Shown one piece after another: positions 34,848-40,800 of a DNA stretch of 64,000 nucleotides (position 1 is the stretch's first letter; every line of letters begins with the position of its first letter). Position numbers and translations under genes: made by a program. This DNA is from Convolutriloba macropyga. Lineage: Eukaryota. Under the pieces are notes generated by a model. That model was not told the DNA's origin and ran no database searches. It was given only the letters and a program-made list of their open reading frames with translations. Where the stretch lies: NCBI RefSeq assembly GCF_964194025.1, contig NW_027453023.1:1-64000 (forward strand). The letters run 5' to 3'.

Positions 34848-37800
34848 ATGGAGCCTGAGGACAGGAAAGGCAGGAGCCGGCAGGACCTGCCCAGCCAGAC
34901 CGTGAAGGTCTACCGCCTCAACGGGAGCAGTGGTCAGATATACCAGTGGCTCCAAGACGTTGTGAGGAGGCACAACACTTCGTCGGCACTGCTACGTGCC
35001 GCCAGCCCGGAGTACGACTATGTCAAGGTGAAGGGCCTGATCATGGGACACATGGACCCAGGGCTCGCAGTCACCTTGGACAAGCGACTGACCAGCAGGA
35101 ACAGGGGAGTGGAGTACTCTGAGGACGACCCCACCGGTGGTTACGAGTATGAACGCATCATCGATCAAGGGGACGGGGAGGAAGGACAGCGCATCTGGCG
35201 TCCTCTACCCTGCGCCGTGACCGGGATATCGGTCGACAGGCCTGACGGGGCCCCAGTCAAGCCCCAGGCTCCCACAAGGCCAGTGCAACACACTCGGGAA
35301 AGCATGGAGGAGTACCGCAGTGACATTGCTATCTACCAGTTCGAGATCAAGCAGTATCGCGAGCAGATGGACGATTACGAGAACGACGTGGCTCGCCATC
35401 AGTTGGCGGACATTGCTCGTTACATCACCAAGAGGGAGCAGCCCCAGAACGAGACCACGATTCTGCGGCGCCTCAAGAACAGGAGTCCCCATGAGATGGA
35501 TTCCAACGAGAGCCAGTGGGCCTCAGCTTGGGCCATATATGAGTCGCGTCCCCGTGGATGTCTTCTGACGGTCAGGGAGGTCATCGATGCCATTGGCTCA
35601 GATGTGTACGACCACATCCCGGGATGCCGCGGCATGTGGAATGCGTACGTGCGTGGGACCAAGGAGACCTTCGGGTACAGGCTCGGAGGAGTGGTGTCTA
35701 CACTAGACAACACGGAGAGGCTCCTGGATTTCAGCACCATCAAGATCAAGACAGCCGAGCAAATCGGACTGTATGCCAGGCAGGCAGACAGTGAGCGCGT
35801 CAGGGCACCGCCAGGGAAGGAGAATCCAAGAGAGCCGAGGGGCAAGAACAGGCCCAATGCTAGGACCCTTTCAAGGCCCTGCCGTCACTGTGGAGGAGAT
35901 CACCTCGACCCTGAATGCCCGACCATTCGAGGAGATGGCAAGAAGCCGCAAACCAAGAGGGAGCTCGGGAAGGATCCCGTCAAGGATGAGCCTGGGGCAT
36001 CGAGGCCCCGGGACTTGAAGTGCTCCGGGTGTGGCAAGCGAGGCCACTCCGTGGAGACCTGTTGGAAGCTGCACCCCGACCTGGCGCCGTCCAGGGGGAA
36101 GGACCGTTCCGTTGATCAGGGCTCCAAGACCGTCCAGGTGGCCGACAAGCCAGCTGAGTCCAACATGACCTACGCCAAGAAGGCGATCGCCGGCATGGGC
36201 ATGGGGCGTACGTGCGGATTCATCGGCGAGGCGCTGAACGTAGTGAGCGACGTCGACACCTACGCAGCTGTCGCCAAGAAGGCCATGTTACGGCATTCAG
36301 ATCCCGCCAGGCGTGGACACGAAGTCTACGCAGGGAGGACCGCCGACAGACCGGTTAGTGAGGACGCGGCCCGAGCCAGAGCCAGCCGGCTGCCCGCGTC
36401 TTTTCGTCCAGTGACGCCGGGACCGGCGGCAGGGGATGTGGTGGAGCGCAACCAGCCCATCAGAGAGGCGGAGCTCAGCGCCATCAACCACAGAGTGGTG
36501 GCGGCCGTTCGAGGAGCATCCGCCAAGACCATCCCCATGTCAGATGTCGCGGCGGGTTTGTCTCGCGAGGAGGCTCAGAGCATCATTCGCGGGTACTTCC
36601 GTGACGAAGGGGAGACATTGGAGGACTCCCGCTTCAAGAACAAGATCGAGGCTGGACTGCAGAAGGGGGGAGTGCATCTCTCGCTGAAGGAGTGTGTCCG
36701 GTTCGGATCAGAGATAGCGGGGATGGTGATCTCCGCTATACGGCAGGAGCTGGGGGTGGACTTGGACGACCAGGTCGCTGTCCCCCAGGGGGCCGGTGGC
36801 GACACAGCACCCGCCTCTTTTCAAGTGAGTGGCCTCGGGACAACAGAAGGACCCCGAGGAAAGTCTCAGGAGATCCGGGTGGTGGACGAAGTCACCTGGC
36901 CGATTGCTCGAGTGGACACGACTGGCGTGACCTTCAAGATGAACGGTGTTGTGGTCGACGACGTCGTCATGGACACGGGCAGCTCCTACTTCGCCATCAT
37001 GCCGCAGAGCATGATTAAGGACTGGTCCTCGGTGATTGAAGACCCAGGTCTGCCGAGCACAGCCAGCAGCGCCCACGATGGGGACAAGGTGTTCCGCAGC
37101 AAGGAGAGGGTCAGGATGGAGCTCAACCCTGTGTTGGGCAGTGGACGTCTGATGATCGACACGTTCGTCCATTACATGCCAGGCAACGTTCCCGACCTTC
37201 TGATCGGAACGGGATTTTTCCTGGAGTATCACGCCCGAGTGGACGTCACAACCAACAGCCTGATCTACTACCCAGATGCGGTACAGGCGTATGTCCAGCC
37301 GGGACAGGCCCCCAGAGGAAGGCAGTGTTCCTTCCCGCTCTTGATGATGCCGGGAGACCGTGTGGCTTACCGTCGCATCCAGCAAGCTACCAACGACAGG
37401 TACCAGAAGTGGTCTGGCCTGCAAGTGACTGCGGGAGCAGGGGAGGCTCATTTCCTGGAGGGTCGCCAGCCAGCGCGCCCGAGTACTCCGCAGCAGAAGG
37501 AGGAGACCAAGTTGGGGAAGCCGCAGTCCGGTGTTCTGCGAGGCAGCCGCAACGAGAAGGGCTGGTGGTGGCCTGAAGTGATGCCGAGGCCTCATCCGGA
37601 TGATGACCCATACCTGCCGACCAAGTTGGTCGAGGAGGGGATTGAGCCCAACCCAGGACCGGTCAGGAGCAGCAGTGGGGAGTCTGAGAGCATGACGCCA
37701 CCCCGCAGCATGACCAGTGAGCCGACGCGAAGGAGGAGGCAAACCAGTCACAGCCCGGGCGACAGGCGCCCGTCCGCCCGGTCAGTCGGAAGATCTGCGA

Positions 37801-40800
37801 CGAGGACAACTCCCCGGGGGCGCCCGCGACCGTTCATGACGACAGTGATGACCCGGGAGGAAGAGCGGAACCTCTCGGAGTTCGGAGCCCCGAGGAACCG
37901 TCCCCCAGTCAGATCCAGATCAGACGTAGCACCGGAAGGAGGGGGCGCAGTTGCCGGAGGAATGCCCCCGGAGGGAGGACCCTCCGATGAGGAAGGAGAT
38001 GCGGCAGATTGGCCGGAAGGACACGGCGGGCCGCCAGGGCCCGGAGGCGACCCCGACCCTGATGATCCGGGCGATCCGGACGAGCCGGGTGACCCCGCGC
38101 CGCAGGGAGGTGCTGCAGCGGTGTCCGGACGAGACTGGTCAAGGGCAAACCACCTGGCTGGCGAGCTTCAGCACAGTACCCTGTGGGCCCGACTCCTCAC
38201 GGGACGCGCCCCGCGTGGCCAGGGAGCCGTACAGAGGATGGCGAACGTGAACCAACACACTCTCACTCGCCAACAACATCAGACTCTTGTGCTGAACGCG
38301 CAGGAGAGAGTGCTGGCCCCGACCGAGCCTCTGATACAGACAATCAGGGCCATGGTGGGGGAGAGATTTCCGGTGGAGGAAGTACTGCGCCGGTGCTGGC
38401 AAGACACGAGCACTTTTGCTCATATTGTCTTGCTCATCATCTACTTGAGCAGACCAGGAAGGGACGCTCCGTTGAGGAGCCGGCTGTTCAACTACCTTTC
38501 CCAGTACCTGTGGCTTCATCGGTCGCCAGCCCTCCATAGGTACTTGGCGAACCATCAGCAGCTCGACCGACTGAGGCGACCCAACTGGAGCATTGATCTC
38601 ACCGCTAGGAGTGTCCACGTGGTCGCTGAGTTCGAAGATCTCTTTCAGGCAGCCAACGGGGGAGATCTCACTCATTTTGGCGCCATGGCCAGATGGTGGG
38701 GGATCAGCGAGGAAGACATGAGCCAGATGGTGACTGAGTGGCAGGGACCAGACTGGAGCCTTGAAGTCCTGTACCCTGCACGCCCATTACCTATGGGCCC
38801 GATAGACACGGCTCAGTTTCAGCGGACTCATCAGCGTCATCTTCACCCAAGGCAGCGCCAGTGGAGCGTCGTCGATTGGGGCAACCAGGTGGAGGAACTC
38901 GTGTACACGGCACAGGGAGCCAAGATCTCCAGCCAGTGGGTCCGCCTGATGATTACAGATGAGCGAACCGCCCATGCGGTTTTGGCCCGTTACAAGACAG
39001 GGTCCAGAGACATGTGGAGGGGAGAACCTAATGTCGGGGGCCACAGTTGGCTCCCGGGTAAGCTGGTGGAGCTTGACCCCCAGGAAGTCGGATGGCCGAG
39101 CAAGAATCCCCGCAGGAGGACTGCAAAGGAGATCTTGGAGGCGGTTCTGAACACCGACACCCAGTTTGCGGACGACACTCAGAAGTTTAAGGTGCTGGAA
39201 TGGCTCGGTGTCATGACCTGGGAGATGACGGCCGTGGAGAGACGCGACGATGGTTCCCTGGTCAGGGTCCATACGGCCCGGATCGTCCTGAGCGACCACG
39301 ATTGCATCTACCTGGCCGACAAGTTCAAGGAGCGTCTCGCGGGTAGCCGGATGGTGTGGGCATCCCTGGGGAAAGTCTGGGACGCAATGGACTCGTTCCA
39401 CCTGATGGTCCCCTCTTACCCGCCGGGTTTGAACCTTCGAGTGACGACTTACCCAGGAACCCCGGAGAACACCGGAGTAACCCAGGTGGTTAGGAACGTG
39501 TGGTACGTCCACCACCACACCAGGGACGCCGCCATCGACCACCTCCGGAGGGCCAGGAGGAAGGATGTAGTGCCAGCGAGTGACGCGCGCGGCAACGGGC
39601 AGCAACCCGAGTTAACCCCTGAGCTGTTAGGCGAGAAGGTGGATTGGGAACCCGACCAGCACATCGACAACGAAGAGTATTGGCGCCACTTTGACAGTGG
39701 GAGGCCATACTGGGCTATGGACGATGGCTGGGAGGTTGTCGTTCGTCCGCCAGATTACGAGGAGAGCGAGGCCGAGAGTCTCCCACACCCGAGGTGGAAC
39801 AGTGGGGGACGCCGGAAAGCTAACCCGAAGAGCTTCTACGGGCGGATGGACAGGCCAGAGGCGCCAAGGCCACCGCCAGGGCCGCCAGGGCTACCAGATG
39901 ATGATTCATCTGACGAAGATGATGGTGGTGGCGACGTGCCAAGAAGTGAGGGCAGTTTCCCGCCCGCGCCGAGACCAGAAGGCGGTTCGCCAGGGGCAAG
40001 AGGGGAAAGCAGCCGGTCGGCTAAGCAGCCTCGGCAAGCGCCGCCTGGCGATGACCCGAAGGGGAAGCGCCCCAGGCAGGAGGGACTCAAGGGAGGTCCC
40101 AGGAGCTTCGCGACCAGGAGGCGGAGCCGCCGCAGTGGCCTGTCTGAGACCGGCAGGCCCCCTCGTCCTACAGCACGGCGCCAAAGGGCGCCCGACCGAG
40201 ATGTTGAGGCGAGGCAGTCCTGGATCATCAGGCGGGACAGCCGACTTACCTCTGACGAGTGGATCCGAGCAGGGGTCCCACAGTGCGTCCAGATCATCCA
40301 GGGAGCCGCAGCTCCAGACCGGACGTATCGCCAGAGGACCGGCTATGCGCCTCCCCCTGTGGGGAAGAGCAGACCCAAGCAGACTGGGTCAAAGGGGGCC
40401 AAGCCACGGCTGGAGGAAGCCACCGGCGGTACAGCCGATGAGCGCCCGATCAAACGCTCAGTTCAAGCGCAGAGCAGCCCAGTAAGCATGGCGGCCAAGC
40501 CAACCTTGTCCCAGTGGTGGCCGCTTGTCAGCATCATGTGCTTCATCATCGGCTACATCGCCCCGCATCTTCCTCAGCTGCTCATCATGTCTGGAGACGT
40601 GGAGCAGAACCCGGGCCCGATAGGGGCACCCGTGGTCAGCCAATGGGAGGAAGTGTTGGCATCTCTGGAGGAGTGGGCGCCTACAGCGTCCATCGTGTAT
40701 AGCCAGCCACCCCCATTTCTCAAATGGTTCCTGCCGTCGTGCGGGGACGTTGAGACCAACCCCGGGCCACACTTATTAGACTCCATCACCTCATGCGTGC

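Follow-up and report, generated by a model that had tools for sequence, protein, structure and literature searches.

Three conserved 2A motifs, candidate leaky skipping sites, around a family-specific insertion in the gag-pol reading frame of a DNA-methyltransferase-carrying Ty3/Gypsy retrotransposon

In retrotransposons with long terminal repeats (LTRs), the balance of Gag and Pol is known to depend on frameshift, read-through, splicing or degradation. KnitGypsy-Dnmt3 of Klebsormidium nitens combines Gypsy domains, a DNA methyltransferase (DNMT) in the Pol open reading frame (ORF) and DIRS-like A-coding-B-A-B repeats; its description, in the part available, mentions neither skipping nor a cargo protein (PMC5890265). 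The 2A (StopGo) motifs at which ribosomes skip had been described, in an earlier sequence-only reading of the locus treated here, as known from RNA viruses and some non-LTR retrotransposons; some LTR-like elements with 2A have also been listed before. LTR-like contigs with 2As are counted in 10.64898/2026.09.24.754024, the accessible text of which gives no layouts, and a Ty3-like reverse transcriptase (RT) likewise places a 2A-like peptide in an LTR-retrotransposon protein, although there, as far as the excerpted account goes, it is one C-terminal site at amino acids (aa) 725-745 of 755, after the RT and with no Gag/Pol partition (PMC13405545). The present locus lies in the window, by which we mean the whole stretch analysed (64,000 nucleotides (nt) of contig NW_027453023.1, assembly GCF_964194025.1, Convolutriloba macropyga). 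Its element, at 33328-47074, is recognizable as a young Ty3/Gypsy retrotransposon with the layout of KnitGypsy-Dnmt3, namely A-ORF-B-A-B repeats, Gypsy domains and a DNMT within the Pol ORF, the two having been compared by layout.

The single ORF of this element (34848-45707, forward strand, 3,619 codons) carries three octamers of the form (D/G)(V/I)ExNPGP, whose NPGP ends fall at aa 938, 1924 and 1974 (nt 37661, 40619 and 40769), exactly where the sequence-only reading had put them; the product sizes which it gave, 937, 986, 50 and 1,646 aa, likewise follow from the motif positions. A six-frame scan found no further octamer of this form in the window, and one extra bare NPGP (minus strand, 3424) lacks the core octamer. 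The in-frame core octamer as defined for all 2A classes, (D/G/C/N)(V/I)ExNPGP (PMC12846837), is present at all three sites. The ORF, its predicted products and the sites are as follows.

34848..45707, forward strand: single ORF, 3,619 aa; its stop lies 118 nt within repeat A2
34848..37658, forward strand: predicted product 1, 937 aa, made up of Gag (knuckles at aa 345 and aa 392) and protease (DTG at aa 709)
37602..37661, forward strand: 2A site 1, 20-mer ending EEGIEPNPG/P; class-B-like, without tryptophan; kept in 6 of 6 copies
37659..40616, forward strand: predicted product 2, orphan protein X, 986 aa; low-complexity ends, core at about aa 1101-1640
40560..40619, forward strand: 2A site 2, 20-mer ending LLIMSGDVEQNPG/P; class A; kept in 5 of 5 copies covering the site
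40617..40766, forward strand: predicted product 3, 50-aa peptide; the first 30 residues drift, the last 20 are 2A site 3
40710..40769, forward strand: 2A site 3, 20-mer ending FLPSCGDVETNPG/P; class A; kept in 5 of 5 copies
40767..45707, forward strand: predicted product 4, DNMT-like domain, RT, RNase H, integrase and PHD, 1,646 aa

The three octamers are of one form, while the sites themselves belong to two types. Sites 2 and 3 have the class A arrangement of a D-type octamer after (A/S/C)G (PMC12846837), the preceding pair being SG at site 2 and CG at site 3. Site 2 has LLIM at -13 to -10 and prolines at -15 and -18, and site 3 has FLPS and prolines at -11, -18 and -19. Site 1 has the class B EEGIE stretch and P-(N/H)-PGP end, with its last 12 residues identical to those of the predicted class B peptide B530; its core octamer had been recognized correctly, the absence of the class B tryptophan had been missed, and because of that absence we call it class-B-like only, not class B.

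Two trivial origins of the motifs were rejected. Chance would supply 4.1e-5 octamers per ORF of this composition. An assembly artefact is at odds with the recurrence of the motifs in other copies and with short-read contigs that span the region; all 30 bins between 37300 and 41100 are covered by such contigs from three runs, with no indels or joints listed, the runs being from one study and possibly from the same samples as the assembly.

Five full-length copies of the family (internal regions 94-99% identical to that of the window) carry all three motifs, and a sixth, incomplete copy keeps site 1 with an I to V change; stops and frameshifts lie elsewhere in several copies. An ENA cluster of 41 members (14 further ones viewed) looks like the same copies and not like independent ones. 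With distinct variants counted relative to the window copy, the ratio of nonsynonymous to synonymous polymorphism (pN/pS) was 0.13 for Gag, 0.17 for the protease, 0.23 for the core of X, 0.13 for the DNMT and 0.03 for RT-RNase H; the whole ORF is under purifying selection. Pooled, the three 20-mers have 3 replacement variants against 11 synonymous ones, a departure from neutrality (binomial p 3e-5); the replacements are L>M, I>V, which stays within the allowed V/I, and Q>R at the x position, and they leave the invariant positions untouched. By comparison, the 40 codons 5' of site 2 hold 4 synonymous and 17 replacement variants (Fisher p 0.001 vs the 20-mers), and the spacer at aa 1925-1954 holds 3 and 8 (Fisher p 0.017 vs the 20-mers). 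The site 3 20-mer has 2 synonymous and 0 replacement variants, and the 31 codons of site 1 have 6 synonymous and 2 conservative replacement changes. This variant pattern fits a nascent-peptide signal at sites 2 and 3 and is neutral for site 1.

What the sites enclose is specific to this family. Between protease and DNMT lie 1,373 aa in this element. In 7 relatives that match cleanly the interval is 167-323 aa, a range which leaves out 4 of 12 relatives without a protease match and one ambiguous case (552 aa), and in 10 further relatives it is 49-646 aa. Removal of the 1,036 aa that sites 1 to 3 enclose leaves 337 aa, so that the sites bracket the extra sequence of the family. The size given earlier for the "unknown protein", 986 aa, was right; that the sites bound a family-specific insertion had gone unnoticed. 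Protein X has a constrained core of ~540 aa and, before site 2, a hydrophobic stretch at aa 1896-1914 (hydropathy 1.75). No homolog of X was found in the ESM Atlas (searched by features), Pfam, PHROGs, PDB sequences, viral contigs or longer proteins, nor in the assembly outside the family, and the single-sequence AlphaFold model of X has a predicted local distance difference test (pLDDT) value of 36.

Beyond the family, conservation of the motifs, which had been put forward as a check on the original reading, gave a divided result: it holds within the family (all 6 copies at site 1, all 5 at sites 2 and 3), fails in the other families of the assembly, where the octamer is on the coding strand of 0 of 19 other DNMT-Ty3 elements (9 + 10 examined; RT identity about 31-35%), and reappears once, in the distant element P0165. 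The octamer is absent from 16 and 69 database relatives in two sets. Among the best 150 matches to the 2A-DNMT region it occurs in one, P0165, a Ty3 protein with its DNMT after RNase H and 33% identity in RT-RNase H, the query having contained the 2As and thus possibly favouring this match. The P0165 octamer lies ~270 aa before the RT (chance expectation 0.0008), and P0165 is one of 19 DNMT-plus-RT matches having more than 100 aa upstream. The 2As are thus not general to the wider DNMT-Ty3 group, yet, as P0165 also has one, candidate 2As stand before Pol in at least two lineages. A C5-DNMT profile retrieved 270 proteins at E<=0.001 in a wide search. Near this element, a quick RT tree pairs it with P0042 (support 99), deeper nodes giving no order, and the other best outside matches are four DNMT fragments of 96-127 aa with 48-57% identity; intermediate relatives were absent from viral contigs and amounted to one 30% fragment in metagenome contigs.

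Several observations on these relatives stand apart from that comparison. In the distant DNMT-Ty3 Pol proteins (P0165, P0261, P0262) a short leader is followed by a class A 2A octamer, two hydrophobic segments and the RT. Three DNMT-domain proteins of 4,100-4,900 aa (P0006, P0011, P0124) have an internal 2A-like variant, GDIHPNPGP, near aa 1,430-1,470, with RT and RNase H listed for the first two. A membrane-like hydrophobic segment ~300 aa before the RT active-site motif recurs in many relatives, whether the DNMT comes before or after the RT (L014-L031, L044-L053; P0005, P0007, P0009).

The explanation we tentatively prefer, at a little under an even chance, is that the three conserved motifs bracket a family-specific insertion and are leaky skipping sites from which protein X would be released separately. 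Because the extra length between protease and DNMT matches the 1,036 residues bounded by the 2As, the sites most likely let the orphan protein be made separately, and 2A as a linker adding extra domains is known in RNA viruses (PMC3708506). Starting from what is observed, one ORF with three motifs and X between protease and DNMT, X and the 2As may have been gained together in a lineage whose relatives read Gag-protease-DNMT-RT-RNase H-integrase-PHD as one polyprotein. Site 1 would then free Gag-protease from X, and the tandem sites 2 and 3 would make sure that Pol comes free of the hydrophobic tail which ends X. Since none of the three sites has the most efficient form, read-through of all three by a few percent of the ribosomes might give Gag-tethered Pol at a frameshift-like level; the computed full read-through is 6.4%, 2.7% and 0.8% at 60, 70 and 80% skipping per site. 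Alternatively, free Pol might be recruited via RNA, as in foamy viruses, where packaging of Pol without a Gag fusion exists (PMC3705302). The uncoupling of Pol from Gag stated in the sequence-only reading stands as a prediction, as the motifs would separate Pol from Gag-protease and there is no -1 slippery heptamer between Gag and Pol, the single one in the ORF sitting in the integrase. Control of Gag:Pol by ribosome drop-off is a possible side effect.

Several points weigh against this explanation, which is drawn from sequence. Among 20-mers screened in human cells, those that end like site 2 skipped in 8 of the 18 cases shown (19 exist) and those that end like site 3 in 2 of 5 (PMC13405545, in part). 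In active peptides residues -19 to -10 form a helix, and it is in this stretch that sites 2 and 3 have their prolines. At the invariant class B tryptophan (position 16), site 1 has L in 5 copies and M in 1, and in class B a W-to-A change or a one-residue shift abolished activity (PMC12338488). The difference between the 20-mers and all flanks pooled is not significant (p 0.07), conservation is equally high in the flanks 3' of sites 1 and 3, the 18 invariant codons carry just 2 synonymous and 0 replacement variants, too few to test, and the copies are 94-99% alike, several of them broken. Finally, the closest outside relative, P0042 (55%), is truncated before the X/2A region, and, as it is without this region and the base of the RT tree gives no order, the gain of X and the 2As follows by parsimony only. 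Given look-alike peptides that often fail, prolines in the helix and L in place of tryptophan, all three sites look sub-optimal, and, with site 1 lacking its tryptophan and fewer than half of the look-alike peptides skipping, any skipping at them is probably leaky. In Chlamydomonas 2A works but always leaves some fusion protein, according to the part of PMC6952782 consulted.

A more far-reaching version, which we regard as possible but doubtful, is that a cascade of three tuned leaky StopGo sites replaced frameshifting, yielding abundant Gag-protease, free X, free DNMT-Pol and a few percent of full-length Gag-Pol for packaging, and that DNMT-carrying Ty3 elements came by 2A control of Pol on more than one occasion; X would in that case perhaps be tail-anchored or anti-silencing.

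Whether the sites serve mainly to set the Gag:Pol ratio, with drop-off at each 2A making Pol a small fraction of Gag, was the central proposal of the sequence-only reading. The lack of a -1 slippery site between Gag and Pol and the tandem pair immediately before Pol speak for it, as do the 2A before Pol in P0165, where there is no sign of cargo, and the finding that 2A-like peptides of retrotransposons commonly belong to the fall-off and reduced-abundance classes (PMC13405545, in the accessible portion). The comparison with relatives did not bear it out as the main purpose: the 19 related elements, many with one ORF, are without 2A, so that the lineage needs no 2A for stoichiometry, and Tf1 likewise sets its Gag:Pol ratio post-translation (PMC7175516, as excerpted). 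Ratio control also leaves unexplained why the sites bound an insertion and how Pol is packaged, and in a viral tandem 2A that was put to the test separation rose to 99.9%, with no stop (10.64898/2026.09.24.754024, accessible text). We consider it unlikely.

Equally improbable in our estimate is skipping at sites 2 and 3 only, site 1 being a decayed class B motif, the products then being a Gag-protease-X of 1,923 aa, which the protease would cut later, and a free Pol recruited without a Gag tether. Site 1 indeed lacks, besides the tryptophan, the D of the (R/K)DLTxE hexamer, and reverse-transcribing elements are reported without highly active class B peptides. Against this stand the match between a predicted class B peptide and the final 12 residues of site 1, the excess of synonymous changes in the 31 codons of the site and the use of mammalian systems in the published tests.

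We give still less credence to all three motifs being inactive leftovers of a captured RNA-virus or LINE (long interspersed nuclear element) segment, in a polyprotein cut by its own protease and with X as a long linker or fused domain. More than half of the look-alike 20-mers failed to skip, prolines interrupt the upstream helix, inactive 2A-like sequences are known in LINEs (PMC3708506, in part) and the copies are young, all of which would suit such a history; the 20-mers, however, are constrained where their neighbours drift, three octamers, of two classes, would probably not have stayed intact without selection, and X has no LINE or virus homolog. Production of Pol from its own start at Met1881 (nt 40488), on a spliced or shorter RNA and with a LINE-like leader of hydrophobic stretch plus 2A, is very improbable, for although this Met is in a strong start context, opens a 43-aa leader and recalls 4 inspected chromosomal 2As which likewise follow hydrophobic stretches, one of 4 other copies has lost the ATG, the leader drifts and seven strong-context Met codons of that sort lie in aa 901-2100.

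Apart from the ORF, the element has the following features, its ends being TGTCGT and ACGACA.

33328..34727, forward strand: repeat A1, 5' terminal repeat starting TGTCGT; 99.93% identity to A2 over 1,400 nt
33634..33656, forward strand: predicted self-primer within A1, exact 23-nt complement of 34725-34747
34725..34747, forward strand: predicted primer-binding site of self-priming type, complement of the A1 segment
41085..41999, forward strand: divergent C5 DNA-methyltransferase-like domain, aa 2080-2384; profile E 1.5e-26
45485..45504, forward strand: purine-rich tract before B1, predicted plus-strand primer; G-run in the same place in 12 of 12 elements
45505..45587, forward strand: repeat B1, 83 nt, ending ACGACA; gc joins B1 to A2
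45590..46989, forward strand: repeat A2, 1,400 nt
46992..47074, forward strand: repeat B2, 3' end of the element; 100% identity to B1, followed by ctta

The Ty3/Gypsy end features (TG...CA, a short target duplication, purine tract and primer site) are present, with the repeats split and not arranged as two plain LTRs. The 4-bp duplication ctta is on both sides of the element, and 11 of 12 elements have a 4-bp duplication. The order protease-RT-RNase H-integrase, with a DDE integrase, fits Ty3/Gypsy. RT, RNase H and the integrase zinc finger score above Pfam cut-offs, the integrase core reaches 32.5 bits vs a cut-off of 32.6, and the protease, with its DTG, has a Pfam E of 0.12. The PHD is weak in Pfam (E 0.063) and matches relatives at E 9e-11. 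Gag was assigned by position and by its two Cys-His knuckles, no capsid family being matched in it in Pfam. The DNMT-like domain is weak in Pfam (E 0.048), its E of 1.5e-26 coming from a profile of five Pfam-positive relatives; it keeps the motif IV Cys and ENV, motif I is degenerate and the second Arg of RxR is replaced. Self-priming is recognized by at least 10 nt just 3' of the 5' repeat that are complementary to a site inside the repeat (PMC6317226, consulted part). All 12 elements have such a complement, of 13-23 nt (controls at most 11 nt), and the perfect 23-nt complement of the window element (at most 10 nt in its controls) suggests Tf1-like self-priming. From the repeat junctions we infer a standard B+A LTR, a two-LTR circle being opened by integrase at the inner CA-nn-TG. 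In the window (45485-47074) and 11 other elements the purine tract leads into B1, the B1/A2 join reads CA-(2 nt)-TG, and the A2|B2 junction differs by a few bases among near-identical copies. The predicted leader of 1.2 kb contains 9 short upstream ORFs.

The window, on an unplaced contig of 66 kb, has a GC content of 53-58%, vs 31-42% in 8 of 8 sampled chromosome stretches, and each of the 6 family copies, like each of the 19 further DNMT-Ty3 elements examined, lies on a small GC-rich contig. These contigs probably come from a co-assembled organism, which is probably an alga; a search of the assembly for light-harvesting proteins gave no match, which neither shows nor excludes an alga. Run X5 contained no words from the stretch, and depth varied from sample to sample, neither observation being taken as evidence here. 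Assembly-wide, the 2A pattern has 775 matches vs 0 for a control pattern, and the 100 matches listed are all on the two largest scaffolds. Three of four chromosomal 2As inspected precede, by eye, endonuclease-like sequence, after a hydrophobic leader, which is the known LINE case (L038-L041). Elsewhere in the window, a 113-bp satellite of ~110 copies with strong strand skew (5484-18878) is flanked by a MULE/SWIM transposase (3621-5378, minus) and a FAR1-like ORF (19099-20097, minus), and 43-nt inverted repeats at 3376 and 20330 enclose all three; the whole is probably one Mutator-like element swollen by satellite. Intron-split cellular genes occupy 49300-58900, including a rhodanese-type sulfurtransferase by Pfam and, by eye only, a patatin-like gene and an armadillo-repeat gene.

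The literature searched contained no three-2A gag-pol layout, with subscription papers and RepBase mostly outside the search and with the figure and supplements of 10.64898/2026.09.24.754024 possibly holding a similar case; nor did such a case occur in the accessible parts of PMC5009743, PMC6317226, PMC7175516 and 10.64898/2026.05.21.726589. The 2As and the DNMT-Ty3 layout are each known; joined in one gag-pol ORF they seem not to have been described. Plant viruses reportedly have almost no natural StopGo, and for this reason the sites of this probably algal element, among them a class-B-like one that lacks its tryptophan, would if active make good test cases and perhaps tools.

Among known systems, the APE-type non-LTR retrotransposons likewise have a class A octamer after a leucine-rich or hydrophobic stretch, in a retroelement ORF and ahead of its enzymes; theirs, however, is usually one site, 40-80 aa from the ORF2 N-terminus, with no capsid (PMC3708506, in the part available), whereas this element has three internal sites between Gag-protease and Pol and is presumably capsid-forming. 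RNA viruses with several or tandem 2As share the dispersed partitioning sites, the consecutive sites before one region and the same octamer and upstream motif types (10.64898/2026.09.24.754024 and PMC12846837, each in part), but here the carrier is an integrated Ty3 element. Tf1 likewise has a single ORF and is self-priming, as is predicted here, although its ratio is set by Pol degradation, with no 2A in the portion consulted (PMC7175516). Foamy viruses also package Pol without a Gag fusion, but they do so from a spliced mRNA, with the protease staying with Pol and, in the accessible text, no 2A (PMC3705302), whereas here the protease would stay with Gag. If the present explanation is true, StopGo in a gag-pol ORF would be a further Gag/Pol route and a means of carrying an accessory gene without a second promoter, and it would raise for a Ty3 element the question of Pol packaging that foamy viruses raise among retroviruses.

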